Below, one piece after another: positions 22,626-55,947 of a stretch of 59,818 bases of DNA. Origin of the DNA: an uncultured Alphaproteobacteria bacterium (GTDB taxonomy: Bacteria; Pseudomonadota; Alphaproteobacteria; RF32; CAG-239); NCBI GenBank assembly GCA_944390905.1, contig CALXRR010000002.1, forward strand, positions 1-59,818. The letters run 5' to 3'. The position numbers and the translations under genes were made by a program. Positions within the stretch are counted from its first letter, which is position 1. Every line of letters starts with the position of its first letter. The notes under the pieces were generated by a model. That model ran no database searches. It worked only from the letters and a program-made list of their open reading frames with translations, and was not told where the DNA came from.

Positions 22626-22630
22626 AGATG

Positions 22631-30671: not shown

Positions 30672-30708
30672 TATTCCGTCTTTCTTTTTTTTTGAAGGAG
30701 TAACTATT

Positions 30709-33252: not shown

Positions 33253-33467
33253 TTAGTTTATGCCGGTATGAAGCTGACGACCCCAGTTTGAAAATCATCA
33301 TGGATAATGGCTTAATTAAAAAAGCCCAAAGCTACCAAACTGAATAATTAATGAAAACACCAAACATTAACCCCTTATTCATAAACTGTTGTTAATCTGA
33401 GTGAGAGAGGTTGCCAATCTCTCTGATTCGTTGTATAAGAACAATATTAGGCATAAGGAGCAGGTTC

Positions 33468-36180: not shown

Positions 36181-36268
36181 AAGGGCAAAATTCACACTAT
36201 TGTAACATATTATATGCTATAATTATAATAAGAGTAAGAAGGTGTCTTTATAACGACGGGAGGCTTTA

Positions 36269-37801: not shown

Positions 37802-37806
37802 CCGCC

Positions 37807-38661
37807 ATGAAAATACGCCGTTTTTTGACATATGTTATAGCCTTTTTGCTAAGTATCGGCATATCTTTTCCGGCCTTGGCCGATAAAGAACACATCCAAA
37901 GTGTTTTGAAAAAAGTTGATAATGCTGAGAAAAAGGCCATGAACGTCCTTGAAGACGGACAACGCATCTATCGTGTCGGACAAAAAGGTTTCAATGGCGT
38001 CAAAAAATCAGTCAACAGCGCCATGAACGTCGGCAAGGCCATCGCCAGCGGAGATATTGAGGGCGCTTTTTCCGCCGCAACTGATTTTGCAGATTCTACG
38101 GATATCCCCGGACTTTCGGAAAACTTGGAAAATATTCAAACCAATGTCGATGAAGCCGGCAAATTAACCGCCTCGGCCAGTGCTCTGGCCTCTAAAGCCA
38201 ACGGTCTGATAAAAACCAGCGCAGACTTGCTGCCCAATACGGTGCCTAATTATTTGAATGATACGACAGACATCAAACAAACCGAGGCCGATGTTGAAAA
38301 AGAATATACCAGCGTTTATGGAAACAATCCGGATATAGATGTTTTTACCGAACAGCAAGATAAACTCATGAGTGCTCAGCGCGAGAACATCGCCAACCTT
38401 TATGCCAAGGCCTTGGCTGTTCGCGTTGACATAGCGGATGAAAAAGCCGCCACACCGGTTGAAATCGATTCCACCACGGCTCGTTCCTTAATTAATGCCA
38501 CGCGAGATACAGCAATGAGGACTGCGGTTCGTCTCAAGCGTATTTATGAGCTTGAAGCCGCGATGTATGAATATAACACCACGGCACAAACCCAAAGATA
38601 TATTATCGTAAATCAGGGAGATTCATCTGCCGCATCAGATACATCGGGAGAACAGCAATGA
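37807..38661 (+). CDS. Secreted hypothetical T4SS-locus protein
   Basis: Signal peptide ..SFPALA. 284 aa, predicted helical. It is tightly packed in the operon, with a 5-nt gap upstream and an ATGA overlap downstream. Confidence 0.5.
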   Translation: MKIRRFLTYVIAFLLSIGISFPALADKEHIQSVLKKVDNAEKKAMNVLEDGQRIYRVGQKGFNGVKKSVNSAMNVGKAIASGDIEGAFSAATDFADSTDIPGLSENLENIQTNVDEAGKLTASASALASKANGLIKTSADLLPNTVPNYLNDTTDIKQTEADVEKEYTSVYGNNPDIDVFTEQQDKLMSAQRENIANLYAKALAVRVDIADEKAATPVEIDSTTARSLINATRDTAMRTAVRLKRIYELEAAMYEYNTTAQTQRYIIVNQGDSSAASDTSGEQQ

Positions 38662-39854
38662 AACTAAGATTATTCCTGATAGCTCTGAGTCTTTGTACTT
38701 TTATCAGCTCGCCGACCGAAGCTTTTTTGAAGTTTGATGCCGGAGCTTCCGCCAGCAAAGCCGTTACTACCGCCAACAATTTTTTGGAAAGCGCCAAGAA
38801 AAAGATGGATGAATCCGTAGCTCTGCAAACAGTAATCACCTACGGCAAAGGTAGTATCGAGACCGCCAAACAAATCCAAGCCATCAAGTCTGAAGCCGAA
38901 AGCAAGATAGAAGACTTTAAGGAAGACCCCTTGCAGGCGGGGCTGGATTTAGCCGATGAAGGCTTGTCAGATTTATCAAGCAATCCGCAGTTTAATGAGC
39001 TTACTTCCAAGATTGAAGAAAAAGCCTCCAAATCGCAGACCGTGCTAGACCTCAAGCGCGAGAAAGAAAAGCTGGAGCAAGAGCTTGAAGACAAGCTCTC
39101 GGTAGAAAAGACCACCCTTGAAGGCAAGATAGCCGTTTATGAAAAAAACAACGCGACCTTAGCCCAACAAAAGGAGGACGACCCCGCCAATGCTGATAGC
39201 TACCAACAACAAATTGAGGCTAATCAGGCGGAGATAAACAAGCTCCAAAGCCAATATGATGCCAATACCCAAACCTTAAAAGCCGAGAGCCTGCCCAAAA
39301 TCACCTCTCTCAGCACTCAAATGGACAGCCTCAATAAAGAGCTGCAAGACTACGCCGCCAAGCAAAAAGCCAAGTTTGAAGACGAGCTCGCTGAAAAATT
39401 GATGACTCACGACAGCCAAGGCAGTCTTGAAGAAACTACCGAGAAAAACTTTCTGACCGAAGGCAATGTTGAAAACAGCGAAGCCATCATCAAGCAGAAG
39501 GCCTATCGTAATTATGTCGCAGGCCAAGACACGCTTAATGCCTTTGCGGTAGCGGTTACCACGCAGGCAGAGTTAAACGATGACAATATTTTGACCGAGA
39601 AAATTGCCGACCGTACCGGTGCCGTAGACGGTTCGGTAGCTGCTATTAATATGGATACGCAGGTAAAAGTCCAAAATATTAAAGCGTTGGGTAAAGTTAT
39701 TGAAATGATGATTCAAGACTTAAAGATGGAAACCTCGACCGAAATGGCTCAAAGCGAAATTAATAGTATAACCAAAGATGATAACATCGCCAATTTTAGT
39801 TTTGATAAATATGTTTCCGAGGCTGATAAAACTTCATCACAGGAGGGAGAGTAA
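38658..39854 (+). CDS. Secreted coiled-coil T4SS-locus protein
   Basis: Signal peptide ..SSPTEA, then long K/E/Q/L heptad-like stretches. It is translationally coupled on both sides. Confidence 0.5.
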   Translation: MKLRLFLIALSLCTFISSPTEAFLKFDAGASASKAVTTANNFLESAKKKMDESVALQTVITYGKGSIETAKQIQAIKSEAESKIEDFKEDPLQAGLDLADEGLSDLSSNPQFNELTSKIEEKASKSQTVLDLKREKEKLEQELEDKLSVEKTTLEGKIAVYEKNNATLAQQKEDDPANADSYQQQIEANQAEINKLQSQYDANTQTLKAESLPKITSLSTQMDSLNKELQDYAAKQKAKFEDELAEKLMTHDSQGSLEETTEKNFLTEGNVENSEAIIKQKAYRNYVAGQDTLNAFAVAVTTQAELNDDNILTEKIADRTGAVDGSVAAINMDTQVKVQNIKALGKVIEMMIQDLKMETSTEMAQSEINSITKDDNIANFSFDKYVSEADKTSSQEGE

Positions 39855-39855
39855 C

Positions 39856-42800
39856 ATGACTAAGCGCAATATTTTATGCTTTTTGCTCGGTACTTTCTTG
39901 TCCTTTGGAGGCATGGGTTCGGCGCAGGCTTTGTTTTTTGGCGTAGATGTCCCCACCATTGATGGTGTTACCGACGCTCTTTTCGGTACTGAGATTGTCG
40001 GTTCTACCATGAGCAATGTCAATACCGGCCTTATTATGGAGGTTCAGGGCAATATCCAAGATATCAAAGCCAAGTATAAAGAATATGCCAACGATTATGA
40101 AGGTGTTATGTTAAAGGACAAAGCCCCGCTTGAAGGAACCCGCACGATTACTTCATCAGAAAAATCCGACATTAAAGACCCGAGCACCACCAAGCGTGCG
40201 GTATATGATCTGTTTTTAGCGGCTCCGTCCAATGATTTTTATGAACAGAGAGACTATCAAGCACAGTCGATTCGTTTTTATCAAGATACTTTGATTGAGG
40301 TCAATACCGCGGTCAACCGACTTGAACAAGAATATAATGATAACCTAAAAGAAAAAATCGCCAATATGTCGGATGATTTGTTGAGCGGCGAAAATGGAGC
40401 CGAAGTCGGCGATGACGAAAATGGCTCATGGAAAAACAACTATAATGCCTATAAAACTTTTGACGATTTGGTACAGATTTGGGAGGAACTGGTAGCCCTA
40501 AAAGCCCAATTAACGGTAGCCAAAGCCATCAAAGATGACATCGCTCCAGCCAAGCCGGCCGAAAGTGATGCTCCATTAAAATCAGGAGATAATACCCAAA
40601 GCTTAACCACCAGCCAAGCCGATGGTGTATCATCAACCAAGCCTCAGCACTATGCCTTTAACAGCCCGCTGCATACCGAAACCTTAGCCTTTGCCCAGCA
40701 AAGCACCGGCACCTATCGCTATAATCCGGAGACTGACAGCAGCATCACTTTTGTTGATGCCCCGACGCCTGATATCGATTCTCCTTTTGCCGGCAGCCGT
40801 AATGAACTCAAAGATTTGGAGCGCCTTAACCCAATATATAACACCGCCGTCAAGGGAATGAAAATTCATAATCTCATCCAGTCGCTCCCTTCCAAGAAGG
40901 CGCTTTTTGACCAATATCATCAATACGAAAAATTGCATGAAAAAGCGGTTGCCAAGGTTAAAGAGTCAGACAATTGCGCTCTTCGTTATTTGAGCAAATA
41001 TTACCAAAACCCCGAGCAAACATGGTACGGAGCTTATATCGGCGAACAAGTAACCGACTATGATTTGCGCAAAGGCGTTTCCGGCTGGGCTATCAGCAGT
41101 TATGACACCGCCAAGGCAGCTTTGAGCAATCCGATAGATAGCGAAGATTTGGCTGAAATGGAGCTTGATGCAAGCCTTGATGGCACCAAATATGAAAATA
41201 TAGCCTCTCAAAAATCCTATGTTGAAGACCAATCCGCAAGCTTTGACGGCTATAAAGAGCAAAGCCAATATGACACCAATGAAGCCAATACCCGCATTGA
41301 GGAGCTTTTGCCCTGGAACATCGGAGCAGAAGCCGCCAAAGAGCTTGCCGATGACCAATACTCCGGCAGCCCGCAATGGGGTACCCCTAAGACGCTTTTT
41401 CCGGTCTGGAACGACCAAAAATCATTTTATGGCCAATACCTTAACGGCAAATACGCTAATATGAAAAATTATTTGAGCCGATTCGATTTTCGCAATCGCA
41501 TAGTGTTAGTTGCACAAATCCTCAATTCACTGTCTGATGCGCGTCTGGAGCTCAAGCAATATGCCGCTAAAGTGCTTAGTTCAATGGCTTCCGGCACTTC
41601 AGATATTGTCGAATATCCGAGCGATGGCAACCCCGACATCACCTCCGCCGCCGAGGAGAAAAAAGCCGCTATTGAAACCTTGCAAAAAAATTTAGAGGCC
41701 GCACTGCAAGCTCAGGAACAATCTCGAGCTGCGTTGGTAAAACAACTTGACAGCGCCCAAACCCGCCAAGATGAACTCAACCGCCAAATCAACCGTGCCC
41801 AAAACGCTAATATGAATGAGGACGCCAAGCTTCCCGAAGATGTTGACGTCGCCTCTCTTCAGCAAGAAGTCGATGCCCAAGACAAGACCATTGAAGACTT
41901 GCAAAGCCAAATTGATAAAATTGATGAGAAAATCTCCAACCTCCGAAAAGCTTATGTGCAAAAAGAGCAGAATATTGAGCAGCAATACGCTTCATTTGTG
42001 GTCAATATCAAAGATCCCGAGCTTAAAAAGCTGATCGTAGGAGCTTTGTCCGGAGCTGACATTCCCTCCGGCATGACAGCGGACCTTTTGGCTCAGGCAC
42101 AAGGCTATGTCGCCGGACTGGTCTCCACCTCGGAGGGCATTTTCTCTGATGTAAAGGATTATGCGCAAGAGGCTGTCGACCAAGCTTTGCAAGATATTTA
42201 CGGCTATGGTGATATTATCTACTTCCCCTCCGGCGAAAGCCAAATATTAGCCCGCCATATTCAGCTGATTAATGAGTTAAAACAGCTTCCGTTTGCCAAG
42301 CTTAGCCAGTCTAAGCCTTCGGTTAATGCCATAGCCTCTTCGGCAGAAGCTCTAAATTTGGTTACCACGGCATTCCAAAGCGCGCTGGTTGATGTTATCT
42401 GTCTCAATCAGCTTTGTGAAAATCCCGATAGTGACTATTTTGTAGGAGCTTCAGCACGCTTCCGTGACTTTAGTGCGCCCAAGGGGGCTCCTGCCACCAC
42501 CACCGCTCCTGTGCGAGAAATCGTCCATTTGGATTATATAGATTATGAAAACATTCCCCAGTTATCAGACGGCAGCGTGGCTAAGGCTGATATTTTGAAA
42601 TACGGTCAGCCGGTGCCCGAAGTCTGGAAATATATGCTAAAAAATCCGGCCTATGTTGAAAAAGACATAGACTTAGAGAGCGCCTTAAACCTCGGTGGTG
42701 AAGATCGCAACTTTATGCGAGGAGGCTTCTTGCCTTGCCGAGACGATAGCATGCTTATAGATGCCGTTGACGATAAAGCCGGCTATTATGTAGTCCCTGA

Positions 42801-43602
42801 TACTCACAGCTCTTATTTAAGCTGCCTGTTTCTAAAAGTTTCTTCAGGCTTGCTGAGTGGGCGCAAAGTCACCAACTCTGAAGCCGAAAAAGACCAAACC
42901 GTCAGCGCTGAGAGCAAAAGTAAAATCTCCAACGATTCGTTTAGCGAGCTTGGCACATTCTTTAAATATGAAAATGACAAACTCTATTTTCGTGAGATGC
43001 CAGCCAAAGCCTATAAGCGCTTAGCCGAAATCCACGGAGATACCACCACGGAAGAATATAAGGAGAATGTAGAGGATAATATCTATAAAAAAGCGGCCTT
43101 CTCCGATAACCAAATCGGCAACTTTTTGCGCTTTGTTGATATGGAACAAGAATATCGTCAAATTTTAGAGGAGTTGACCACCAAGATGGAACAAACCAAA
43201 GCCGACCTTTTTGAAGAGTTTAAAGAGGCAGGCTTTACCCCATCTGATGACTTTGATTTAAGCAATCCGGAGGATTACCGGCAAGCCCGCGATACTCTTG
43301 ATGCGCAAAAGAACAACCAAATCAACGCCGCGCAAAATATGTTACAGACATTAACTTCACCGGAGAATGACGTTGTCAAAGACCGCCGTACCGGAGTTGA
43401 AAACATGATAAATGCCTTGATAAAAGACGAAAATGAGCTTATTAATCTAAGTGAAGATACCGTTCCGGATAGTACTTTTGATGAGCGCTTAAAAACCGAA
43501 GAAGCCAATAATGCCATCGCTGATAAATATCAAGCCGAGGCAGATAAAGCTTTTGAAGACGCACTCAACAGTTTTCCGGCTCCGTATTGCGCCGCATATT
43601 AA
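39856..43602 (+). CDS. 1248-aa secreted T4SS-locus protein with VirB5-like N-terminal motif and central coiled coil
   Basis: RBS AGGAGGGAG then ATG at 39856, giving the signal peptide MTKRNILCFLLGTFLSFGGMGSAQA. The mature N-terminus LFFGVDVPTIDGVTDALFG echoes the VIPTVDATAI of 36269. No internal TM helices are seen. Confidence 0.55.
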   Translation: MTKRNILCFLLGTFLSFGGMGSAQALFFGVDVPTIDGVTDALFGTEIVGSTMSNVNTGLIMEVQGNIQDIKAKYKEYANDYEGVMLKDKAPLEGTRTITSSEKSDIKDPSTTKRAVYDLFLAAPSNDFYEQRDYQAQSIRFYQDTLIEVNTAVNRLEQEYNDNLKEKIANMSDDLLSGENGAEVGDDENGSWKNNYNAYKTFDDLVQIWEELVALKAQLTVAKAIKDDIAPAKPAESDAPLKSGDNTQSLTTSQADGVSSTKPQHYAFNSPLHTETLAFAQQSTGTYRYNPETDSSITFVDAPTPDIDSPFAGSRNELKDLERLNPIYNTAVKGMKIHNLIQSLPSKKALFDQYHQYEKLHEKAVAKVKESDNCALRYLSKYYQNPEQTWYGAYIGEQVTDYDLRKGVSGWAISSYDTAKAALSNPIDSEDLAEMELDASLDGTKYENIASQKSYVEDQSASFDGYKEQSQYDTNEANTRIEELLPWNIGAEAAKELADDQYSGSPQWGTPKTLFPVWNDQKSFYGQYLNGKYANMKNYLSRFDFRNRIVLVAQILNSLSDARLELKQYAAKVLSSMASGTSDIVEYPSDGNPDITSAAEEKKAAIETLQKNLEAALQAQEQSRAALVKQLDSAQTRQDELNRQINRAQNANMNEDAKLPEDVDVASLQQEVDAQDKTIEDLQSQIDKIDEKISNLRKAYVQKEQNIEQQYASFVVNIKDPELKKLIVGALSGADIPSGMTADLLAQAQGYVAGLVSTSEGIFSDVKDYAQEAVDQALQDIYGYGDIIYFPSGESQILARHIQLINELKQLPFAKLSQSKPSVNAIASSAEALNLVTTAFQSALVDVICLNQLCENPDSDYFVGASARFRDFSAPKGAPATTTAPVREIVHLDYIDYENIPQLSDGSVAKADILKYGQPVPEVWKYMLKNPAYVEKDIDLESALNLGGEDRNFMRGGFLPCRDDSMLIDAVDDKAGYYVVPDTHSSYLSCLFLKVSSGLLSGRKVTNSEAEKDQTVSAESKSKISNDSFSELGTFFKYENDKLYFREMPAKAYKRLAEIHGDTTTEEYKENVEDNIYKKAAFSDNQIGNFLRFVDMEQEYRQILEELTTKMEQTKADLFEEFKEAGFTPSDDFDLSNPEDYRQARDTLDAQKNNQINAAQNMLQTLTSPENDVVKDRRTGVENMINALIKDENELINLSEDTVPDSTFDERLKTEEANNAIADKYQAEADKAFEDALNSFPAPYCAAY

Positions 43603-43614
43603 GGAAAAATCACA

Positions 43615-44364
43615 ATGGCCGAGCAACATCTGGAAGCATCAAAAACATTATCCATTACAGACGAAAACGGGCATAAGCACGAATTTTTGAGCGAAGCCGA
43701 AAAAGAGGCCAACAGCGCCAAGCTAAATTATTATAAGTGGCTTTCGCGGCTGTTTATTTTCTTTGCGGTATTATCCTTGATTGTTTTTATGAGCTCTTCT
43801 CTGGCGCTGTTTAACCTTGCACCTCAAGTGAGTGTTGAGCCGTTTTTGATAATCAAACAAGATGCCTCGGAAAACATCGTCCGTTATGAACCTATTGAAA
43901 ACAACATGGCCTCCCAAAGCCAGTTGATGGAAATGTTTGTTAAGCAATACGTAATCCTCCGCAATACCATATTGCGAGATGAAGGTGAAATGATGCTCCG
44001 CTGGTACCCCGGAGGCATGGTCAATTTTTTATCATCAGACTATGTTTTTTCTGAATTTGATGCCTATCGCCGCGGCGTATGGCAAACCATGCTTGATAGC
44101 AAGATAGTCCGCGAGGTTGAAATCATTTCAGCCGAAAAGGTCGGCGGAGAGCAAAGCTCAGTATGGAAGGTTGACTTCCGCACCTTTGATTTGTCCGAAT
44201 ACGCCCGAGATAACAAAACCCGAGGCATGAAACTCCAAATCCGCTATTGGACAGCATCAATTACGGCATTTTTCTTTAAGGAGAGGGAGTTCGTCGGCCT
44301 CCGCTTAATCAACCCGATAGGCTTTACGGTTGTACGTTATTCTCAAACTGAAGTAGAGTTTTAA
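43615..44364 (+). CDS. virB8: VirB8-family protein (paralog 1)
   Basis: Bitopic, with the TM helix LSRLFIFFAVLSLIVFMSSSLALF followed by the NTF2-like periplasmic domain pattern (EPFLI......V....P......Q.L...FV.QYV..R...; NPIGFTVV.YS). Confidence 0.65.
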   Translation: MAEQHLEASKTLSITDENGHKHEFLSEAEKEANSAKLNYYKWLSRLFIFFAVLSLIVFMSSSLALFNLAPQVSVEPFLIIKQDASENIVRYEPIENNMASQSQLMEMFVKQYVILRNTILRDEGEMMLRWYPGGMVNFLSSDYVFSEFDAYRRGVWQTMLDSKIVREVEIISAEKVGGEQSSVWKVDFRTFDLSEYARDNKTRGMKLQIRYWTASITAFFFKEREFVGLRLINPIGFTVVRYSQTEVEF

Positions 44365-44483
44365 GCATATATTATATTAAGTTGGGGATTTTCTGGGCTA
44401 GACATTAGACTTTTAAAATAAAAAAGTATATCAATAAATACAGTATACTAAAAAATAAAAGCGCAAAATATGAAAGGCCTGTA

Positions 44484-44672
44484 ATGTCTAAAAAATTTCT
44501 TATACTTTTTATGGTGCTGTTTTTAACGGCCTGCGGAATTTTTGGCTCATATTATGAAGCCGAACCAATCGGTATCGGTAAAGGCGTTGATGAGCTTAAG
44601 CTTTCCCCTTGTGCCTGCCTGCAACTAGATTTGCCTAAAGATCTTCCGGACTGGTTTATTGAAACAATCTAA
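44484..44672 (+). CDS. Small lipoprotein, VirB7-like by size and position
   Basis: 62 aa with lipobox L-T-A-C in MSKKFLILFMVLFLTACG. It lies between the virB8 paralogs and upstream of virB9. Confidence 0.45.
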   Translation: MSKKFLILFMVLFLTACGIFGSYYEAEPIGIGKGVDELKLSPCACLQLDLPKDLPDWFIETI

Positions 44673-44693
44673 AACAACGGATAGGACGTCTAA

Positions 44694-45419
44694 ATGGTTG
44701 ATAAGCTTGAAGAAAGAGGCGATAAACAAAAGCTGCTTGGGCGAGCGGAGCGTTCCGGCGTAAATCAGCGCAAAGATAAAGATGTTTTTGTCGGCAATGT
44801 CGGAGAAAAAAGATACCTTTGGACCGCGCGAGCTTTTGCAATTATTACGGCAATCAGTCTTTGCTGTAATATTATCTTGATTCTGGCCATATCGCAAGTT
44901 ATCCCTCTTTACCGCATCGAGCCGTTTTTGTTGACCTTCCAAAATAAAGAAGATCAGGTTTATAATATCCAGCTTGTCCAAGGGCTGGAGGACGAAAAGG
45001 CTATTACCGAAGTTTTTGTTAGAGAATATGTTTTATTAAGAAGCTCCTTTGATAGAGATATTCCTGAGATGGAGTCTCGCTGGATGCCTGGCGGTCAAGT
45101 TCAAGAAATGTCTTCCCAAACAGTTTATGAAGACTTCATTCGCAATACTGCAAACCGAGCCTTGGAGCTGATTCGCACCCGCAATCTCCAGCGTACGGTT
45201 CGTATCTTAACAGTCAATGAGCTCGGGCGTGGACTTTGGCAGGTTGAGTATGAAACTCAAGATATGTATCCGGATTCGGCAGTGCCGGATGTCAATTATT
45301 GGACGGCCAATATGCGCATAACTTATCGCCCCAAGACCGTAAAATATGACGAACGCTTAAAAAATCCGATAGGATTTACGGTTGTACAGTATTCTTTAAC
45401 TTATAATAAGGTTAAATAG
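44694..45419 (+). CDS. virB8: VirB8-family protein (paralog 2)
   Basis: Same architecture as 43615..44364, sharing IEPFLLTF, VFVREYVLLRSSF and NPIGFTVVQYS. Confidence 0.65.
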   Translation: MVDKLEERGDKQKLLGRAERSGVNQRKDKDVFVGNVGEKRYLWTARAFAIITAISLCCNIILILAISQVIPLYRIEPFLLTFQNKEDQVYNIQLVQGLEDEKAITEVFVREYVLLRSSFDRDIPEMESRWMPGGQVQEMSSQTVYEDFIRNTANRALELIRTRNLQRTVRILTVNELGRGLWQVEYETQDMYPDSAVPDVNYWTANMRITYRPKTVKYDERLKNPIGFTVVQYSLTYNKVK

Positions 45420-45448: not shown

Positions 45449-47080
45449 ATGATATCAAAGTTATCAAAAATATTTGTTCTGAGTCTTGTCGCCAGCGTTT
45501 TTGCCGGAGCTTCATCAGCACAGGTCACGATGAACAATCTTGATCAAAACGCCGACCAAAGTATGGGGCAATATATGCCGATGAATATGAATTATGCCGG
45601 CTTTAGCTCTCTTGGCATGACACAAGCTGCTTGGCTTGACCCATTGCAAAACTTGGGTGAAGGACAAAGCCGTCCGGCTTATTCCAAATATTATTGGAGT
45701 CCGGATTTGGTTTTGCCGGTTCGCTTGAGAGAAGGAATGATTACTTTGATAAACTTCCCTGATTGGGAACTCATTGAAGATATGTACATCGGAGATAATG
45801 CAACTTTTGACGGACAAATAAGCGGGCCTAATACCATTTTGCTTTACCCTCGTAAGGGCGCCAACGTCGGAGTCGATACAAACATCATTCTGTTTGGCCG
45901 CTCCGGCAACCGCTATGTGTTTTACGCCAAGAGTGAAGGCGTTAATACTGAAAGATTGACCAACTCCATTATAGATATAGATGTCGTTGAAGGCGCTAAC
46001 GGAGGGTCTTATTCCGGCGGCGGTAGTGGCAATCGTTCTTTTTCAGGGGGTATAGGTAAAGGTCGGGGTTCATCAGGATATTCAGCAGCATCAAGTTATA
46101 CCAAGCGCAATCAGCGCAACAACTGGATAGAGGATATTCCGGTTGACCCCAGCAAATTCCGTTTTGATATTGAAATTTATGTGCCAAACCCTGATGATGT
46201 AGTTATTGCGCCGGAGCGCGTCTGGAGAGACGATATCTTCACCTATATTGACTTAGGCGAAAAAGCCTTAAACATGACCCAGCGTCCGATAGTCACCATG
46301 ATAGTTGAGCGCTCTGAAGTTCCGGTCGGCTTCCGTACCAAAGGCCCTAACAACCGCTTGATAATAGTTGAAGGTGTCGGCGATATGGTTTTGCGTAATG
46401 GCAAAAGAATAGTCTGCCTTAAGCTTCGTCGTTCTGATGATGCCGGCATGGAAAATGTCAGCTATGCTGATGACTTGTTCTCTAACGAGTGGTATGTCCA
46501 AGCTCCGGTTCCCGGCCGTAATAGTGCCGAAATCGGTGACGGAAACGTTTTGCAAGGATTCGGCCCCAAATATCCTGAATACTCCGGCGGCATGCCTGGT
46601 AATTATGGCTATCCTCCGGCCGGCATGGGCGGCTCTGGAGCCATGAGCGGAGGTATGAACCCTTCAGGAATGAACGGGGCCGGTAGTGAATTTGGTAATG
46701 GCTATGACGGATTCGATTATTCGCAAATGCAGCATATCTCCAATACCGAGAACTACCCCTCTAACAGCAACGCCATTCGTGAGGCCATGGGCTATGGCAA
46801 AGGCATGAACGGCGCCGGCAGCGGTGACATCTCCATAGAACTAGGTGTAGATGCTCAAGTCAGCAACTTGGAGGCTCTGTGGTCTGATTTAAGCAAAAAA
46901 TATCCGGATATGCTGTCTCAGTATGAACCCTATTACTCCGTTGACACTCCGGCCGACGGCCATGGCAAAGAGCTTTTCCACCTCCGCATCGGCCCCATAA
47001 ATAATCTTGAAGACGGAGATGTTATCTGTAATCAACTTGGGCGGAACGGCGTGTTCTGCAGTGTGGTTAGAACGCAATGA
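45449..47080 (+). CDS. virB9: VirB9/TrbG-family core protein with Gly-rich inserts and a C-terminal SPOR-like domain
   Basis: Signal peptide, then an N-terminal VirB9 domain (LPVRLREGMITLINFP....IEDMYIGD...F......NTILLYP......DTNIILFG.SGNRYVFY). The C-terminal VirB9 domain follows (FRFDIEIYVP...IAPERVWRDDIFTYIDLG......RPIV...V). Residues about 462-543 read ISIELG....VSNLEALWSDL.KKYP.........Y.........G.ELFHLRIGPI....D.D..C..L...G..C.VV, which is SPOR-like. Confidence 0.7.
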   Translation: MISKLSKIFVLSLVASVFAGASSAQVTMNNLDQNADQSMGQYMPMNMNYAGFSSLGMTQAAWLDPLQNLGEGQSRPAYSKYYWSPDLVLPVRLREGMITLINFPDWELIEDMYIGDNATFDGQISGPNTILLYPRKGANVGVDTNIILFGRSGNRYVFYAKSEGVNTERLTNSIIDIDVVEGANGGSYSGGGSGNRSFSGGIGKGRGSSGYSAASSYTKRNQRNNWIEDIPVDPSKFRFDIEIYVPNPDDVVIAPERVWRDDIFTYIDLGEKALNMTQRPIVTMIVERSEVPVGFRTKGPNNRLIIVEGVGDMVLRNGKRIVCLKLRRSDDAGMENVSYADDLFSNEWYVQAPVPGRNSAEIGDGNVLQGFGPKYPEYSGGMPGNYGYPPAGMGGSGAMSGGMNPSGMNGAGSEFGNGYDGFDYSQMQHISNTENYPSNSNAIREAMGYGKGMNGAGSGDISIELGVDAQVSNLEALWSDLSKKYPDMLSQYEPYYSVDTPADGHGKELFHLRIGPINNLEDGDVICNQLGRNGVFCSVVRTQ

Positions 47081-50000: not shown

Positions 50001-50508
50001 AAACTTAAGCTTGCTCAAGAGAGGAGCCACGCTTGATTATAGCGGTAATTTATCCGGAGCGGTAATGCCGGACGGTAGCACCATCAACCTTGATAACGCC
50101 ATCACGGGCAGGGTTTTGTCAGACGGCAGCACAGTCAATAAGAACGGCAAACTTAACGGAGCCGTAATTTACGGAGATATAGTTATCAATAACGCCGATA
50201 AAGTCGTTGGCTATGTTACAATTGACGGCAAAGTCAAAAACACCGGAGGAGAGGTCATCGGCCGTATGTTATCCGATGAGCTTGCGGTAGATACTAATGA
50301 CAATATCCTCGGGCGAGTTTATAAAATAGGCACTATTGTTTTGAAGAACGACGGTAGTTTTGTAGGACGTTTGTCACCTGACGGCAGCGTTGTCAGCACC
50401 ACAGGTACGAATATTGGTTACCTTAAGAACAATGGCTCATATATAGATTTAGATAAAAAAGTATCAGGCTATGCTTTGCAAGAAGTAGCCAAAAACAGGA
50501 GGAACTAG
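47077..50508 (+). CDS. 1143-aa membrane-anchored protein built from a 17-residue repeat (D-x-N-G-N-[IV]-I-G-x-[VLM]-x-x-D-G-x-V-V)
   Basis: The ATG overlaps the virB9 stop (ATGA). It has an N-terminal TM helix (ILTVGLTSLIIFLAGLYLLY) and a possible Ig-like beta domain (residues about 80-180). From residue 225 I counted consecutive 17-aa units by hand. Confidence 0.8.
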   Translation: MSKEVLTHSEAYVKKTNRIILTVGLTSLIIFLAGLYLLYESKQKTTEYVEPVLTGNDDALNFGSANPLDNNIEFNTIDDTQVPITLTPNPVPMGQVVLGNTADNVLTIGTNGKAAIKIVSVQLAEPPADGFTFKDGCTNIDLSGDRTCHITMNWAPVVAGNVQNNFIVTWYETNLGAGNSKAEKVPVIGNAIDVTDCNFCENAPQTGSSETSQPESYQLVSEAIGPKGDVIGYVDENGYVRDKNGKIIGRVNENGLVVDDAGNIIGVSGNRRLVLDENGNVIGYVNPDGTVVDKNGNIIGRMLPDGTVVDANGNILGKALDAGYVYDKDGNIIGRVLPDGTVVDMNGNVIGRLNEKGEVVDANGNVIGYVTKPGKVAIDENGNPLGVVMPDGTVVDTNGQVIGRLDENGNVSTDNIIGQASDIMRRLAYDKDGNVIGYIDENGNVRDFNGNIIGRMLEDGTLVDANGNVIGKAGDYARLAVDKDGNVIGYITSDGRVIDSNGNQIGYLDENGNIISGVLKKIGSLVPQDMIPITPSGEVLGTINNDGSITDVGGQTVGRVLSNGLVKDPSGSKVIARLVRGGLVVGYGCKNIGFLDKDGKVRKGETVFDYKVMPDGVVIDTSNQYVGEIITPGPAFDNNCTLIGTIGNDGLVRDSGNNYVGCVNPDGIILDDKGDIIGGARKEGVAVSYDGDYLGRVNDEGLIVNAASLPVGCIGAYGDVFNKNGGYIGHIQEHTFGYDLKGNFLNTLDERAEVSVKGEKPYRLLANNLLVNDNNQITGVALRGKSVIGNADGRFMGRVFPDGKVYNSDGSPIGKITGDGFSFYNNQLGRILPVGEVVDFKGQRLGRANYDGNVVSKFGEILGHIDAKGVFIDNKGEYRGAVVSKGPAIGYDGSYLGYAVSDGSVISTEGQRAGRVSSDSKVISPTGEVIGEVIPENIVIDIWGSYKGRMNSLGDILDLKNDNITAILPGGSSDKNLSLLKRGATLDYSGNLSGAVMPDGSTINLDNAITGRVLSDGSTVNKNGKLNGAVIYGDIVINNADKVVGYVTIDGKVKNTGGEVIGRMLSDELAVDTNDNILGRVYKIGTIVLKNDGSFVGRLSPDGSVVSTTGTNIGYLKNNGSYIDLDKKVSGYALQEVAKNRRN
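47749..50460 (+). repeat. In-frame 51-nt (17-aa) coding repeat array
   Basis: Examples are DKNGKIIGRVNENGLVV / DENGNVIGYVNPDGTVV / DKNGNIIGRMLPDGTVV / DKDGNIIGRVLPDGTVV / DMNGNVIGRLNEKGEVV. At the DNA level, gatgaaaacggcaatgt-type strings recur. Confidence 0.8.
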
Positions 50509-50509
50509 G

Positions 50510-53500
50510 TTGAATAAATTGTTGCGAAAAATCACTCGATTAGGTGTTTTCACGCTGCTTGTCGGCCTGCTGAAGATTTCCGGAGCGCAATCCTTAGAGA
50601 TAACCGCCATTGATTTTAACGGAGACTTACTCGGAAAAGTCATCCCTGACGGCAAGGTGGTTAGCTTTGACAACCAGTTAATAGGCAACATCACCGCCGA
50701 CAGTTTAATAGTTAATTTTGAAGGCAAACTTATCGGTGGCGCGGTTCCTCAAGGCATAGCCATTGGCAACGACAATCGCCTTTTGGGTAAGGTTAATAAT
50801 GACGGCACGGTTCGCGTCGCATCAGGTAAGATTATAGGCAAAGTATTGCCCAACGGCTTGGTTGTTGATGATTATTATAATGTTATCGGCGCGGTTTTAT
50901 TCCCTGGGCTGGTTTATTCAGACGAAGGCAAAACGGTCGGACGCTTAACCGGTGATGGTGTTTACAGCAACCTTCAGGGTGAGGTCATCGGCTTTTTAAC
51001 ACCTGATGGCTATGCCTACCGCCGCACAGACAGAGACATCAGCTTAGACGGCCGCCTTATTTCCTCCAAAATGATAATCTCACCGGAAGGCAAGTTTATC
51101 GGCAGCATCGTCCCCGGAGGTCAAATCACCGATTTTGACGGCCAAAACATAGGCTTTATCCACGCTAACGGCTTGGCGTATAATGAAGCAGGTCAAATTA
51201 TCGGCCGCTTGGTTCGCTCTGGCTATGCCTTTGATGACAACGGTGCTTATATAGGTTTTGTTATGTATAACGGAGAAGTCGTCAACAAAGACGGAGTTAT
51301 AGGCCATTTGTTGATAGACGGGCGCATCGCCGACCAAAACGGCAAACCAATAGGCTTTGCGCTAGACATCAGCGCTACGGCTACTGACAATGAGGGCAAA
51401 TACTTGGGGCGTTTAATCCCCGGCGGCCAAATCGTTCAGGCAAAAGAGACGGTCGGCATGGTCGGCCCTCGCGGAGTTGTGGTTGATAAAGACAATAATA
51501 TCATCGGCGAAATCACCCGTACCGGCCCTATTTTTGATTATAAAGGCCGCATCTCGGGTCATGCCTTAAAAGACGGCTCGGCAATATCTTTGGGCGGCAA
51601 TCGTATAGGCTATGTTGTAGGCAAGAATAGCTTTGACAATACCGGCAGTTTGATAGGCAAACTCTTTGACTATGGTCAGGTTATCCGTTTGGACAATACC
51701 CCTGCCGGCACCGTAGGCATAAGCGGCCGCATTATTAATAATAAGGAGACACTTCAGGCCAGTCCGTTTGGCTATGTCTATGGTCCGCAAGGCAATGTAG
51801 CCGGAGTTTTGGTTGACAGTGGCACTTTGTTTAGCGTCAACGGCGGTATAGCCGGCTATGTTAATGCCAACGGCGGCTTGGAGAACAAAGGCGCCAAGCT
51901 CAGCGGAACCTTAACCCAGTCCGGTTTGGCACTCAGTCCGGAGGGCCGAGTTTTGGGCGGAATTATATCCGCATTGCGCGCTCAAACTTTCTCCGGCAAT
52001 CTTTTAGGACTGTTGTCCGACGGCAATCAGGTCTTGGATACTGACAACAAAATGCTCGCCAAGATATTGCCGGATAATTCGGTGGTTTCGGCACTCAGCA
52101 GCAATTCAGCCGAGCTCAATCCGGTAGTAGGGCATGTTAACGCTTCTGATTTTGCGGTTAACTTGAGCGGGCGCCTTTTGGGCTATACCACCCGCACCGG
52201 CCGCCTTAAGGACACCTCCGGACTTTATTTCGGCAAATCAACCGGAGACGGCAGTGCCCTTGATACCAACGGCAAATATCTCGGCGGCTTGCAAAATTAT
52301 GCCGCAGTGGTTGATATGTCCGGAGAGCTTTTGGGCAATATCACACCGCAAAACCAGATTCGCAATTACCGCGGAGTAAATTCCGGTCATGTCTTGTTAA
52401 ACGGTCAAGCCGTAGCTGAAAACGGCTCTATTATAGGATATGCAATTCCTTCGGGCTTGATTATTGACTTTAACGGCAAAATATTAGGCAGCATCTCAGC
52501 CGGCGGCGATGTGCTCAATAATAGCAACGAAAATTTAGGCAAGGTCGATTGGCAGGGGCGTCTATATAATGCCGAAGGAGCCTTGTTGGGCAGCAGAATA
52601 TCTTATTATCCGGTCATAAGCTTCAACCACGCCATTATCGGCCGTAGCGTTATTGATGGCCAAATCGTCAACCCCAACAATCAGTTTATCGGCAGAGTCC
52701 AGCCCAACGGCAATATTGTGTCTGAAAGCGGCAATTCCATAGGTTCTCTTTTCAAATATAAGTTTGCGTTTGATAATAAGAACCGGTTTTTGGGCAGGGT
52801 TAATAATCAGGCAGAAGTTATTGATGCAGAGGGCAAAATTCTGGGACAAGTCAATTTTGACGGTTATGTTATTAATAATAATGAAAAGATAGGCTACGCC
52901 TTATACGATTTGTATATTTATGATAACAACGGTCGAGCCCAAGGCTATATTGAATCTGACGGAAGTATTTTGTCGTTTTTATCCGAGCGCTTAGGTCAAA
53001 TCGACCGCGGTTTTATGGTTGATAAAAATAGTAAGGTCTTGGGGCGTGGCAATCGCGATTATACTATCCGCGCAGAGCAAAACAAACCTCTGGGAGAGCT
53101 CCGGATGAACGGTGATCTCATAGATTATAGCGGCAAAACCATCGGCCGCTTAGGCAGTGACGGCAATATCTTTGATGAAAGCGGGAAGGTTTTGGCCGTA
53201 GCCACTCCGCTCCAGTATTATAATGTTACTATCGACCGCGAAAAAGTCTACGATGCCGAGGGCAAGGTTGTTGGTTATCTGGCTAATGACGGCAATGTCT
53301 ATGATGAAAATGGCAAGCTTATAGGCAAGCTCAATCCAGATGGCACCGTAAGCGGCTCTGACGGGAGCATTATCGGCGGTATCGGCACCGATTGGTACGA
53401 AAAAGTCAAACTTGATATCCCTGATAAAAAACTCCCGCAAGTAGGCATCCATAAGAGTGAAGATGACTTAGAGCTAGAACTCAAAAATAAAGAATACCGC

Positions 53501-54964
53501 AAATCTTTGAACATCGCCTTAACCCCTGATGGTGAATACTTGGGCGATATTCTTGAAGACGGCCGCGTCGTAGACAAGAGTGGCAAATACTTGGGTCGCC
53601 GCATGCCTGATGGCTTGATTATTGACGATGACGGCAACCTGATAGGTATTGAAGAAGTCCGCAAGCCCGAAGGCGGAGACTTGTTTATCCCGAGCGGAAC
53701 CTTTGGCCCCGGCGGAGCTTATGGAATAGGCAACGGCCCCGGAGGCAATTTAGGCCCTGGGGGCGGTTTTGGCAGTGGAGAGCGTTATGACCCTGAGCGT
53801 GCAGCAGCCTTGGCAGCCGCTCAACAAGCCCGCCGCCAGAGTATGGGCGTAGGCCATGTAGCCTCCAATGTCAAAAAAGAAAGCTTTGACGGCTACCAAA
53901 AGAACTGGGATAATGAAGGTATCAATAAGACAATTTCTTCGTGGCGCGTTGATATGAGCGAAATGATATTGGCCGACAAGCCGATACCGGCAGTTATTTC
54001 TCGTTCGATTGACTCCAACAACCCCACGCCGGTTACGGCTTATGTTGAGCGCAATGTTTACGCCGAAGAAGGTCGCAATATCATAATTCCGGCTGGCAGC
54101 CGCTTGCTCGGCACGCTTAACAGTATGGTCGCCAATTCAGAGACCACCTCGCAGTCAGCCAAAGTCCAAATCAGCTGGGAGCGTTTGATTCGCCCCGATG
54201 GCATTTTGTTCACCTTCCAAGGTATCACGGCTGACGCAATGGGTCGCGGCGGAGCGCTTGGCTATCTTGACCAGCAGCTCTTTAAGAAGTATACGCTTCC
54301 GGTCATGACCACTGCGCTCACCAGCTATACCGCCTATATGATGGCACCTAATGATAATTCGGAAAATGAGGTTGAAACCCCCAAACAGCAGGCAGCTAAC
54401 GATGCCCGCCAAAACTTCTTGACCCAAATGAACGAGGTCTTTTCAGAGATATTGGCTGATAAAACCAACATCCGCCCGCTGACTTATGTTCCGGCCGGCA
54501 CCCGCATTATAGTCTTCCCGAATGTTGACTTGTGGCTCAGAACCCCTGAAAGAGATGATGAAGTTTCTTCCGGCGGCAAGAGAAATCTGTTGATTGATGA
54601 TAAAGAAGTCAGCGCCCAAATCAGCGCTGAACAAGCAGCCAAGAACAATTCAGTCTCGGCCAGCGTCGGCGGAGTAGATGCCTCAGACCAAGTTCTGTAT
54701 CAGTCCAACTCCAACGGCTATACCGCCTCAGAAGCCCCAAAATTGATAGATGATGCCAGCGTCACCAATCAAATTCGGAGCCAACAGGCCGCCCGCCAGC
54801 AAAACATCAGCGGAGCCGTTCCGCCACCGCCGCCCTCCAGCAGCACCAGCTCGGCACCGGTATTGGTAAGCACGCCTTCGCCCACCCCAAGCAGCAGTTC
54901 CGGCAGTAGCTCATCATCGTCTTCTGCTAACCGGAACAACAATAGTATTCCGCAGTTATTCTGA
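50510..54964 (+). CDS. virB10: Giant VirB10 (1484 aa): N-terminal hydrophobic segment, about 1000 aa of 17-residue repeats, Gly-rich linker, TrbI/VirB10 C-terminal domain, Pro/Ser tail
   Basis: RBS AGGAGG then TTG at 50510. The repeat units include DNQLIGNITADSLIVNF / EGKLIGGAVPQGIAIGN / DNRLLGKVNNDGTVRVA / SGKIIGKVLPNGLVVDD. The C-terminal block is PIPAVISRSIDSN.PTPVTAYVERNVYAEEGRNIIIPAGSRLLGT......Q....V.ISWERLIRPDGILF.F.G.TADAMGRGG..GYLD, which is canonical VirB10/TrbI. Confidence 0.85.
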   Translation: MNKLLRKITRLGVFTLLVGLLKISGAQSLEITAIDFNGDLLGKVIPDGKVVSFDNQLIGNITADSLIVNFEGKLIGGAVPQGIAIGNDNRLLGKVNNDGTVRVASGKIIGKVLPNGLVVDDYYNVIGAVLFPGLVYSDEGKTVGRLTGDGVYSNLQGEVIGFLTPDGYAYRRTDRDISLDGRLISSKMIISPEGKFIGSIVPGGQITDFDGQNIGFIHANGLAYNEAGQIIGRLVRSGYAFDDNGAYIGFVMYNGEVVNKDGVIGHLLIDGRIADQNGKPIGFALDISATATDNEGKYLGRLIPGGQIVQAKETVGMVGPRGVVVDKDNNIIGEITRTGPIFDYKGRISGHALKDGSAISLGGNRIGYVVGKNSFDNTGSLIGKLFDYGQVIRLDNTPAGTVGISGRIINNKETLQASPFGYVYGPQGNVAGVLVDSGTLFSVNGGIAGYVNANGGLENKGAKLSGTLTQSGLALSPEGRVLGGIISALRAQTFSGNLLGLLSDGNQVLDTDNKMLAKILPDNSVVSALSSNSAELNPVVGHVNASDFAVNLSGRLLGYTTRTGRLKDTSGLYFGKSTGDGSALDTNGKYLGGLQNYAAVVDMSGELLGNITPQNQIRNYRGVNSGHVLLNGQAVAENGSIIGYAIPSGLIIDFNGKILGSISAGGDVLNNSNENLGKVDWQGRLYNAEGALLGSRISYYPVISFNHAIIGRSVIDGQIVNPNNQFIGRVQPNGNIVSESGNSIGSLFKYKFAFDNKNRFLGRVNNQAEVIDAEGKILGQVNFDGYVINNNEKIGYALYDLYIYDNNGRAQGYIESDGSILSFLSERLGQIDRGFMVDKNSKVLGRGNRDYTIRAEQNKPLGELRMNGDLIDYSGKTIGRLGSDGNIFDESGKVLAVATPLQYYNVTIDREKVYDAEGKVVGYLANDGNVYDENGKLIGKLNPDGTVSGSDGSIIGGIGTDWYEKVKLDIPDKKLPQVGIHKSEDDLELELKNKEYRKSLNIALTPDGEYLGDILEDGRVVDKSGKYLGRRMPDGLIIDDDGNLIGIEEVRKPEGGDLFIPSGTFGPGGAYGIGNGPGGNLGPGGGFGSGERYDPERAAALAAAQQARRQSMGVGHVASNVKKESFDGYQKNWDNEGINKTISSWRVDMSEMILADKPIPAVISRSIDSNNPTPVTAYVERNVYAEEGRNIIIPAGSRLLGTLNSMVANSETTSQSAKVQISWERLIRPDGILFTFQGITADAMGRGGALGYLDQQLFKKYTLPVMTTALTSYTAYMMAPNDNSENEVETPKQQAANDARQNFLTQMNEVFSEILADKTNIRPLTYVPAGTRIIVFPNVDLWLRTPERDDEVSSGGKRNLLIDDKEVSAQISAEQAAKNNSVSASVGGVDASDQVLYQSNSNGYTASEAPKLIDDASVTNQIRSQQAARQQNISGAVPPPPPSSSTSSAPVLVSTPSPTPSSSSGSSSSSSSANRNNNSIPQLF
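50612..53655 (+). repeat. In-frame degenerate 17-aa repeat array inside virB10
   Basis: It has the same period and the same G-x-[LIV]-[IL]-G ... [DN]-G-x-[IV] skeleton as the array in 47077..50508, but is more diverged. Confidence 0.75.
53930..54545 (+). other. TrbI/VirB10 C-terminal barrel domain region
   Basis: It runs from SSWRVDMSEMILADKPIPAV to TRIIVFPNVDLWL. See the motifs listed for the parent CDS. Confidence 0.8.
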
Positions 54965-54975
54965 TGAGGTAAAAT

Positions 54976-55947
54976 ATGAGTGATTTCAAAGTACTAGAAT
55001 CAGTTTTACGCCCGCTTTCCGCTTGGTATAATCAGGATAATATAGAGGAAGTAGCCATCAACAAAGCCGGTCAAATCTGGCTCCGCCTTCGCGGTAAAAG
55101 AGCTTATCCCTGGGTAATGTATAAGGATGAAAACTTAACCAAATCCTATTTGACAGATTTGTTGTATATCATTGCTAACACCTATGAATTGCCGTTTGAC
55201 CCGATATCCGGCTCACCGGTGGTTTATGCCAGCATCCCCGGAGACCATCGTTTTTCAGCGATTGCGGGCAAAAACGTGATGTACGATGAAGACGACTTGA
55301 CCGGTGGCATAGCTTTAACAATCCGTGTCCATGCTGATGACGTTGCCTTTGGATTAAAAGATTACGGCTTGACCCAAGGACACGGCTTGCACAAAATCAA
55401 CCCGTTAAAGGACATTAAAGACCCCAAAGACCCTTATGAACGCTTGTTGCTCAGCATCAAAAGGGGCGACCATATTTTAATCAGCGGCGCCACCTCCACC
55501 GGTAAAACGACCTTTTTGAATAATCTGCTCAAGATACTTGATTTGCACAAAAGAATAGTCACGATTGAAGACACGCGCGAACTTATAGTCCCGCACCCCA
55601 ACCGCGTCCACTTGGTTTTGTCGCGAACCGAGCAAACCAACGAGTTTAATTATTCTAAAGTGATAGACTTGGTGGTGCGCTTTACCCCGGACGCCATTAT
55701 CGGAGGAGAAATTTCCACCGGCAACGCCGGCGCAATATGGGAGCTGATGGGTTCCGGTCATGACAACTGCTTGGCGACCATCCACGCCGAAAGCTCAGAG
55801 GCCGCATACGAGGCTTTTGTTGACCGTATCTTGCATACTTATCCCACCATTGACCGCAACAAGACTATTCAAGAAATGCACCGCCGCTTGCGCGTGGTAC
55901 AAATCAGCCGCGAAGGCAACCTCCGCGCCGTTACCGAAGTCACTTAA
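54976..55947 (+). CDS. virB11: VirB11 T4SS ATPase
   Basis: Walker A ISGATSTGKTT, Asp box RIVTIEDTRELIV, Walker B AIIGGEI and His box GHDNCLATIHAES. 323 aa. Confidence 0.85.
   Translation: MSDFKVLESVLRPLSAWYNQDNIEEVAINKAGQIWLRLRGKRAYPWVMYKDENLTKSYLTDLLYIIANTYELPFDPISGSPVVYASIPGDHRFSAIAGKNVMYDEDDLTGGIALTIRVHADDVAFGLKDYGLTQGHGLHKINPLKDIKDPKDPYERLLLSIKRGDHILISGATSTGKTTFLNNLLKILDLHKRIVTIEDTRELIVPHPNRVHLVLSRTEQTNEFNYSKVIDLVVRFTPDAIIGGEISTGNAGAIWELMGSGHDNCLATIHAESSEAAYEAFVDRILHTYPTIDRNKTIQEMHRRLRVVQISREGNLRAVTEVT

Follow-up and report, generated by a model that had tools for sequence, protein, structure and literature searches.

VirB10 is, to our knowledge, regarded as the sole component of type IV secretion systems (T4SSs) that spans both membranes in one chain. 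The canonical core complex contains about 14 copies of it, and it relays ATP-dependent conformational signals to the outer-membrane gate. What, then, is to be made of a VirB10 homologue that carries about 1000 residues of a short repeat in front of its barrel domain, and is it a single envelope-spanning chain at all? The question is raised by a 59,818-nt stretch of DNA from an uncultured alphaproteobacterium (GTDB lineage RF32, CAG-239; assembly GCA_944390905.1, contig CALXRR010000002.1, positions 1 to 59,818 of the forward strand), hereafter called the window, in which the open reading frame (ORF) at 50510-54964 codes for a protein of 1484 amino acids (aa). An earlier note on this DNA had treated the ORF as a standalone protein. 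Comparison with its relatives points instead to one half of a two-gene unit. The reading that we favor, with moderate confidence, is that the window encodes a split giant VirB10, with ORF 50510-54964 being the C-terminal half that resulted from gene fission, the gene at 47077-50508 directly upstream being the N-terminal half, and the two products probably re-associating as a periplasmic strut.

The ORF begins with a TTG codon, has a perfect Shine-Dalgarno sequence (AGGAGG) 6 nt 5' of this start, and is open over all 1484 codons with no internal stop. Its product contains everything that had been listed for it from the DNA letters, namely the repeats, a Gly-rich segment (GPGGAYGIGNGPGGNLGPGGGFGSG), a C-terminal TrbI domain, and a Ser/Pro tail of the form PPPPPSSS...SSSSSSS. 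The Pfam model PF03743 matches residues 1153-1343 (E 1.5e-32, 113.5 bits against a cut-off of 35), which corresponds to 53966-54538 where about 53930-54545 had been proposed. When the barrel was compared with PDB sequences, ComB10 was the best match (E 1.3e-20), followed by TrwE, CagY, X. citri VirB10, and TraF, with the CagY chains scoring E 1e-5 to 6e-5. An AlphaFold2 (AF2) model of residues 901-1484 was of low confidence (predicted local distance difference test, pLDDT, 55; predicted template modelling score, pTM, 0.26) and was used solely to find the PDB family of its best local matches, without structural detail. All of the top 24 Foldseek matches of this low-confidence model were VirB10-family chains, with template modelling (TM) scores for the target mostly of about 0.4-0.55 (0.34-0.56), and two long helices are predicted in it at the antenna position (1254-1278 and 1291-1318). 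The C-terminus is thus VirB10 proper, and the description of the protein as a VirB10 homologue to which some 1000 residues of 17-aa beta-hairpin repeats have been added is supported.

Genes rich in repeats are easily mis-assembled, and the array of one distant relative (L016) is interrupted by a scaffold gap. Nevertheless, ORF 50510-54964 is no assembly artefact, because the identical 1484-aa protein was found on contigs of two separate metagenome assemblies and intact ORFs of 1402-1568 aa are present in 15 species-level relatives (metagenome-assembled genomes, MAGs). These orthologues share the same architecture and are found on hundreds of contigs, some of them up to 2 Mb long, and the repeats are too divergent at the DNA level to have collapsed. 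The chance that the ORF is an artefact or a pseudogene is therefore negligible.

To place the protein among its relatives, the barrel region was searched against 1.84 billion cluster representatives, which returned three tiers of homologues. Members of the nearest tier (42-63% barrel identity, 1407-1888 aa) begin with a signal-peptide-like leader followed by EITAIDF or a close variant. Those of the next tier (35-54% barrel identity, 1498-2406 aa) start with SSSEQYVKKSNR (S-S-S-E-Q-Y-V-K-K-S-N-R) and a strong transmembrane helix. The outer tier (29-39% barrel identity, about 350-660 aa) has a transmembrane helix, mostly a Pro-rich linker (about 7-15% Pro), and not a single hairpin unit. In related bacteria, one fused protein of 2100-2400 aa is encoded at the same position between VirB9 and VirB11, and its layout runs from a short cytoplasmic tail through an inner-membrane helix, an immunoglobulin (Ig)-like domain, a 17-aa beta-flower array, and a Gly-rich linker to the VirB10 barrel. 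For example, a gap-free contig (L017) has the order VirB8-VirB8-VirB9-(2363-aa Bflower plus TrbI protein)-VirB11, with the separate partner gene absent.

The 1143-aa product of the gene upstream of our ORF corresponds to the front part of these fused proteins. BLASTP aligned its residues 4-1136 collinearly with residues 3-1177 of the fused 2363-aa protein P0218 (E 1e-94), including the non-repeat N-terminal 200 aa, and the only places to which its first 230 aa could be mapped were the N-termini of fused forms. A hidden Markov model (HMM) built from the first 60 aa of its orthologues matched the N-termini of 14 of the 17 listed fused giants (P0225, P0243, and P0248 were missed) as well as one VirB10 of canonical size (P0259), and it matched no split-form VirB10. 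BLASTP placement of the array of ORF 50510-54964 on the fused proteins was also attempted and rejected as ambiguous, since the repeats cross-match everywhere and only the non-repeat N-terminus maps uniquely. In a neighbor-joining (NJ) tree of the barrel domain, the split forms made up one clade in 195 of 200 bootstraps and were nested in paraphyletic fused forms, whose monophyly was recovered in only 5 of 200; repeat-bearing and canonical forms were separated in 199 of 200. It is because of this nesting, and because a fused protein is found at the same VirB9-VirB11 position, that we read the window as encoding a split VirB10. The comparison shows that the direction of change was from fused to split and that the hairpin array took the place of the Pro-rich linker found in canonical-size relatives, which measure about 370-630 aa in the tier closest to this family; Pro makes up 2.8% of residues 29-1050 of our protein as opposed to about 7-15% of the linkers in most of those relatives. 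The simplest history has two events: a beta-flower array took the place of the Pro-rich linker a single time, and one fission then cut the gene in mid-array, after which the distal half would have gained its own start codon and export signal.

The two genes are packed tightly together, with the upstream stop and the downstream start 1 nt apart (50491-50512). The upstream protein is conserved at 14 loci, and its NRRN C-terminus, whose codons contain the Shine-Dalgarno sequence of the downstream gene, is kept in 13 of the 14 orthologues. This conservation may reflect the ribosome-binding site rather than protein function. A fusion of both ORFs by readthrough or frameshifting was considered and rejected: the upstream frame has a second stop two codons past its TAG, and the downstream ORF is equipped with a conserved AGGAGG, a start codon, and an export signal of its own. 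Pfam detects Bflower_2 (E 5.4e-66) and, weakly, ASH in the 1143-aa protein, and NCBIfam reports choice-of-anchor-D. Canonical VirB10 is bitopic, with an N-terminal tail and a transmembrane helix. In the window these two elements lie on the upstream ORF, while ORF 50510-54964 has a presumably cleaved export signal followed by the hairpin array of about 1000 residues, which also stands where the Pro-rich periplasmic linker would be expected.

The N-terminal hydrophobic segment of ORF 50510-54964 had been taken for the inner-membrane helix, a view for which we find no support. The segment looks like a Sec signal peptide as judged from its sequence: the h-region spans 11 residues and is followed by a Lys, and no 19-residue window reaches a Kyte-Doolittle value of 1.6. 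Across 15 orthologous loci, a cleavage motif with small residues at -3 and -1 directly precedes a conserved [ED]I[TS]AI[DN]F, with the mature N-terminus reading EITAIDFNGD in most orthologues, and the leader before the motif is variable in sequence, positively charged, and hydrophobic. On the other hand, some orthologues have Kyte-Doolittle peaks of 1.9-2.2 at the N-terminus, and accessory bitopic proteins are frequent in T4SS loci, as with DotF alongside DotG. It is therefore conceivable that the segment is an uncleaved signal anchor, which would make ORF 50510-54964 a complete envelope-spanning VirB10 and the upstream beta-flower protein an accessory inner-membrane paralogue. We consider this unlikely given the short h-region, the Lys that follows it, and the position of the small residues immediately before the block of strong conservation. 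In addition, the N-tail of ORF 50510-54964 is itself unconserved, whereas a conserved VirB10-type N-tail sits on the upstream protein. In any case, the fission history would stand even if the signal were an anchor.

Between the export signal and the Gly-rich linker lies a long array of hairpins. Residue autocorrelation over residues 31-1080 peaked at lags of 17 (0.188), 34 (0.156), and 51 (0.140) above a background of about 0.09, and the 17-residue peaks were not seen in the C-terminal region of the protein. An iteratively built HMM of the 17-residue unit placed 31 units in strict phase, with the pattern D-x-N/D-G-x-[IVL]-[IL]-G...D/N-G. Most gaps between the placed units are at a multiple of 17 or 1-2 residues away from one, so the gaps are taken to hold degenerate units, giving a total of roughly 60. 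The array is broken by a non-hairpin insert at residues 964-998 (approximate limits), which AF2 predicts to be disordered. The suggestion that the repeat was not a named family proved wrong. Pfam identifies Bflower_2 (PF21785) in seven stretches with E 4.5e-60 and 200.8 bits against a cut-off of 38, Bflower (PF21784) with 77.4 bits against a cut-off of 25, and DUF3659 (PF12396), all of them models for the beta-flower fold (PMC10584680). The repeat thus scores above the gathering threshold and carries the [DNEQ]xxG hairpin-tip motif that together define membership of the beta-flower clan (Pfam CL0395). The fold was described by Durairaj et al. in 2023 from small closed barrels of 8-12 strands and about 96 aa, some of them lipoproteins, with hairpin petals that turn at [DNEQ]xxG; its function is not known (PMC10584680). 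The described beta-flowers are single small barrels, whereas the window has long continuous arrays, of about 60 and at least 37 units, in a T4SS core component.

An AF2 model of residues 28-1100 (1073 residues), computed from a 23-sequence alignment, had a pLDDT of 85 and a pTM of 0.78 and consisted of an almost uninterrupted all-beta strand-turn-strand lattice with a period of 17. Because the pTM is so high for 1073 residues, the model argues that the array is a single rigid body and not a string of separate beads. The best Foldseek matches of this model were Rhs cores, teneurin, and TcB/TcC shells (E 5e-26 to 1e-10), and the NCBIfam model YD_repeat_2x matches the whole 1484-aa protein (20.6 bits against a cut-off of 15.8, E 4.5e-4) without any single stretch passing alone; the upstream protein matches it with E 8e-10. 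The likeness to YD/RHS hairpins that had been noticed in some units therefore stands for local hairpin geometry and fails for overall shape. Despite the excellent Foldseek E-values, membership in the Rhs/YD shells was ruled out by TM-scores of 0.06-0.11, with an rmsd of about 29 Å over about 1000 columns, and the closed cocoon of the shells of type VI secretion Rhs effectors, TcB/TcC, and teneurins is not shared with the array. A Pfam scan of the ORF detected no Rhs core, toxin, or plug domain. The repeat region gave only chance matches to PDB sequences in phmmer (E about 0.4), and neither phmmer of PDB sequences nor Foldseek turned up a solved beta-flower for comparison. Conservation along the array is uneven. 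Among orthologues, identity is about 80% at residues 51-150 and about 40% in mid-array, and both the first 120 or so mature residues (about 80%) and the last module together with the Gly-rich linker (70-75%) are conserved about as well as the barrel.

Long repeat regions in VirB10 homologues bring to mind CagY of the Helicobacter pylori Cag T4SS, which also has a C-terminal VirB10 barrel after a very large repeat region, within an enlarged core complex; its chains match the window barrel by fold with a TM-score of about 0.55, as measured on the low-confidence model. CagY repeats contain Cys, are largely helical, and are so nearly identical at the DNA level that in-frame recombination alters their number. 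The earlier note had hinted at a picture along these lines, in which ORF 50510-54964 is a single bitopic giant VirB10 whose repeat number shifts through in-frame recombination and so tunes the T4SS, and its layout of hydrophobic N-terminus, repeats, and barrel does fit such a picture. However, Tandem Repeats Finder (TRF), run on 46000-55500, found no tandem DNA repeat within the ORF, its sole match being 23 nt of period 12 in the upstream gene (48165-48187). The copies of the 51-nt repeat are 60-80% identical in DNA, and no exact DNA repeat in the two genes is longer than 19 nt. We also examined 96 distinct protein variants, at 99% identity or more, from the sister species 'Azospirillum sp. 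CAG:239', which is abundant in the human gut, and found no change in hairpin number among them. Apart from differing start-site or truncation calls, the variants differ in length by only two things, an indel of 10 aa within an Ala/Glu-rich insert and a single Ser of the poly-Ser tail. Across 16 species the protein keeps a length of 1402-1568 aa even though mid-array identity is only about 40%. Since unit number does not change among the 96 variants and length is stable across 16 species, the array is a length-constrained, conserved structural element and not a variable one. With the signal-peptide anatomy of the N-terminus and the location of the ancestral N-tail and transmembrane helix on the upstream gene added to these results, a single CagY-like chain has only a very slim chance of being correct for this lineage. 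The observation that the repeat is unrelated to that of CagY held up: unlike CagY, the window has 17-aa beta-hairpins without Cys, no DNA-level repeats, no length polymorphism, and two genes.

Two further observations concern inserts and repeats in relatives. In the Azospirillum sp. CAG:239 orthologue (P0171), an Ala/Glu-rich helical insert (TEAEAARLAAEKAEAERLAAEQAAAAG) breaks the hairpin array at residues 912-945 or thereabouts; it is the site of the 10-aa indel, the sole internal length polymorphism in the 96 variants, and it differs from the insert at residues 964-998 of the window protein. The distant fused relative L016 contains, at 8087-8974, a higher-order tandem repeat of 237 nt (79 aa) with 83-92% identity. 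This repeat lies on both sides of a gap of 100 Ns, shortly upstream of the barrel, and it broke the scaffold. Recent repeat turnover thus occurs elsewhere in the beta-flower VirB10 family, as the CagY-like picture would have it, and some lineages may vary their repeat number.

How might two separately encoded halves do the work of one chain? Both arrays are inferred to be periplasmic because the fused proteins have an inner-membrane tether at one end and an outer-membrane barrel at the other. There the hairpin arrays would fold as rigid all-beta rods or solenoids, and the inner-membrane-anchored and outer-membrane-anchored halves would probably join non-covalently through them, with the strongly conserved first 120 or so mature residues of ORF 50510-54964 as a candidate docking module. 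The joined halves would rebuild the envelope-spanning VirB10 strut, and in the multimeric core complex such struts would add up to an enlarged, length-defined periplasmic cage or ring, a contribution comparable to the one that the repeats of CagY make to the Cag machine and those of DotG to the Dot/Icm machine. In a more specific and tentative form of this proposal, which we put forward as a possibility, the link between inner and outer membrane is made by two separately exported proteins whose rigid arrays of defined length dock array-to-array, so that the connection between cap and motor becomes an assembly step, possibly a regulated one, and the arrays form a periplasmic ruler or cage unlike any solved T4SS.

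Several points weigh against a split, strut-forming VirB10. The tree is a simple NJ tree of 220 columns with a small outgroup. A few orthologues have N-terminal Kyte-Doolittle values of up to 2.2, enough for an uncleaved anchor. The repeat model reaches TM-scores of no more than 0.11 to all of its top Foldseek matches. No VirD4 or relaxase is encoded in the window, and a fully extended double array may exceed the length of a typical periplasm.

Two other roles for the arrays were weighed against that of a strut. One is surface display, a proposal already made for CagY and DotG, with the arrays serving as an adhesin or as a sheath for host contact; mid-array is the least conserved part at about 40% identity, the local fold resembles extracellular YD/Rhs and teneurin shells, and the lineage is gut-associated. 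Yet the array precedes the barrel in the chain, and in the fused forms an inner-membrane helix anchors it, which makes it periplasmic unless about 1000 folded residues are threaded outward. Moreover, the array varies only through substitutions that leave Gly positions and length intact, and the indel pattern of a diversifying surface protein is not seen, so we regard surface display as quite unlikely. Alternatively, the arrays could be peptidoglycan- or cell-wall-binding modules that fix the machine in the sacculus instead of forming a strut between the halves, a suggestion that draws on weak Foldseek matches to the choline-binding protein CbpF (E 1.6e-5). The TM-scores to CbpF are only about 0.1, no known peptidoglycan-binding Pfam family was detected, and about 110 units per protomer pair far exceed what anchoring needs; we give this suggestion a slim chance, and it is in any event compatible with a scaffold rather than exclusive of one. 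Neither of these roles, nor the signal anchor discussed above, is favored by the data.

CagY is not the only parallel, as had been supposed. DotG/IcmE of the Dot/Icm machine, a type IVB secretion system found in Legionella and Coxiella, is a second VirB10 homologue with a variable repeat region, an integral membrane protein of 1048 aa with a repeat-bearing variable middle and TrbI at the C-terminus; it forms the link between the outer-membrane core and the inner-membrane complex, and its pentapeptide repeats vary in number and are affected by recombination (PMC6761968). DotG chains are among the Foldseek matches of the window barrel, but DotG is a single chain whereas the window VirB10 is spread over two genes, and no pentapeptide family is among the Pfam matches of the ORF at E <= 0.01, the period being 17 and not 5. 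With neither DNA-level recombining repeats nor pentapeptide repeats, ORF 50510-54964 is a VirB10/TrbI family member by its C-terminal domain that belongs to neither the CagY nor the DotG subtype. It shares the TrbI domain and the VirB8-VirB9-VirB10-VirB11 gene order with canonical VirB10, TrbI, and ComB10. The rvh T4SS of Rickettsiales is a chromosomal, lineage-conserved alphaproteobacterial system of the P-type with duplicated VirB8 and unusually large channel-associated proteins, and Rickettsia VirB10 has 481 aa and a Pro-rich tract (PMC2653234). The window locus resembles rvh in its duplicated VirB8 and large channel-associated proteins, and differs from it in that the rvh VirB10 has no beta-flower array and no split.

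The building blocks are thus ordinary and known, and it is their combination that is unusual. Hundreds of copies are present in databases, where they are annotated as 'TrbI/VirB10 family protein', '5-fold beta-flower protein', 'cOMB3', or 'hypothetical protein', among other names, and the beta-flower VirB10 family is common in MAGs of gut Alphaproteobacteria. A literature search found no description of a beta-flower VirB10 or a split VirB10, an absence that is not proof. If our reading is correct, this would be a third, independent repeat-expanded VirB10 after CagY and DotG and the first functional context for the beta-flower fold. A chain cut in two, with its Pro-rich linker exchanged for about 110 rigid beta-hairpins, would also be a natural test of whether covalent continuity is needed, which makes the locus of moderate to high interest for T4SS structural biology. 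The bacteria that carry the locus, the Azospirillum sp. CAG:239 group, are uncultured Alphaproteobacteria that are often met in the guts of humans and animals.

The features of the two genes and of the surrounding loci are collected in Table 1.

Table 1. Positions of the split virB10 genes, their parts, and neighboring secretion genes in the window
Feature	Position	Strand	Basis and remarks
Probable C-terminal ('outer-membrane') half of split giant VirB10	50510..54964	+	1484 aa; Bflower_2 and TrbI (Pfam)
Predicted Sec signal peptide, residues 1-26 (MNKLLRKITRLGVFTLLVGLLKISGA, then QS)	50510..50587	+	Hydropathy and orthologue comparison; cleavage inferred
Array of about 60 17-aa beta-hairpin units (beta-flower/DUF3659 type), residues ~31-1050	50600..53659	+	Autocorrelation, phased units, Pfam PF21785, AF2
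Gly-rich linker (FIPSGTFGPGGAYGIGNGPGGNLGPGGGFGSGERYDP)	53660..53794	+	Sequence reading; nearly invariant in orthologues; predicted disordered
TrbI/VirB10 C-terminal barrel domain, residues 1153-1343	53966..54538	+	Pfam PF03743
Ser/Pro/Ala-rich C-terminal tail (~140 residues), ending in [IV]P[QA]LF	54539..54961	+	Sequence reading
Probable N-terminal ('inner-membrane') half of split VirB10, 1143 aa	47077..50508	+	Pfam, hydropathy, homology to fused forms
Cytoplasmic tail of 1143-aa protein	residues 1-18		Conserved
Transmembrane helix of 1143-aa protein	residues 19-37		Kyte-Doolittle 2.38
Ig-like domain of 1143-aa protein	residues ~76-200		Four conserved Cys
Hairpin array of 1143-aa protein	residues ~225-1106		At least 37 17-aa units placed by unit HMM over ~880 residues; room for about 50
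Conserved end of 1143-aa protein (GYALQEVAKNRRN)			
Shine-Dalgarno AGGAGG of the VirB10 half, inside last codons (..K-N-R-R-N-stop) of upstream half	50498..50503	+	
VirB9/CagX homologue, 543 aa, immediately upstream of 47077-50508	45449..47080	+	Pfam CagX, E 1.4e-11
VirB11-type ATPase, 323 aa, immediately downstream	54976..55947	+	Pfam T2SSE, E 4.4e-21
Remaining T4SS locus	30240..45419	+	Pfam, hydropathy
VirB2 pilin	30240-30671	+	
847-aa protein with several transmembrane segments and a signal peptide	30709-33252	+	
VirB4	33694-36180	+	
Four secreted-type ORFs (510, 284, 398, 1274 aa)	36269-43602	+	Signal-peptide-like N-termini
Two VirB8 paralogues	43615-44364, 44694-45419	+	
Secretin	25396-27027	-	
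R64-type PilO accessory protein	24096-25370	-	
T2SSE ATPase	20931-22625	-	
T2SSF platform protein	19792-20922	-	

The order virB9-virB10-virB11 is found in the window and, where the contig reaches, in the related loci examined. The VirB9/CagX homologue is about twice the usual size, its CagX domain at residues 79-324 being followed by a C-terminal extension of about 220 residues, and in relatives it ranges from about 520 to 640 aa. The 847-aa protein is a possible substitute for VirB6. The four secreted-type ORFs matched no Pfam or NCBIfam family apart from weak matches of the coiled-coil type. As rpsA lies on the same stretch at 4550-6232, the T4SS locus is chromosomal.

The C-terminal tail of ORF 50510-54964 is a feature that canonical VirB10s do not have. 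Its terminal V-P-Q-L-F is nearly invariant in orthologues, and the final Phe is kept even in distant relatives. The tail might be a docking peptide or a C-terminal signal like those used by the beta-barrel assembly machinery (BAM).

A cluster of the type IVb-pilus kind or resembling a type II secretion system directly adjoins the T4SS locus on the opposite strand (19792-27027). Together the two clusters recall the pairing of thin pilus and T4SS on IncI plasmids, although the pair in the window is chromosomal. Among the related loci, one from a MAG titled 'Lactobacillaceae bacterium' (L007, JAISVX010000001.1) is a full locus of the alphaproteobacterial type, and the title probably reflects an error of binning or of taxonomy. 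A 492-aa ORF that lies upstream of the secretion loci, at 13163-14641 on the minus strand, contains a Ser/Thr protein kinase domain of the eukaryotic type (Pkinase, E 3.2e-11).

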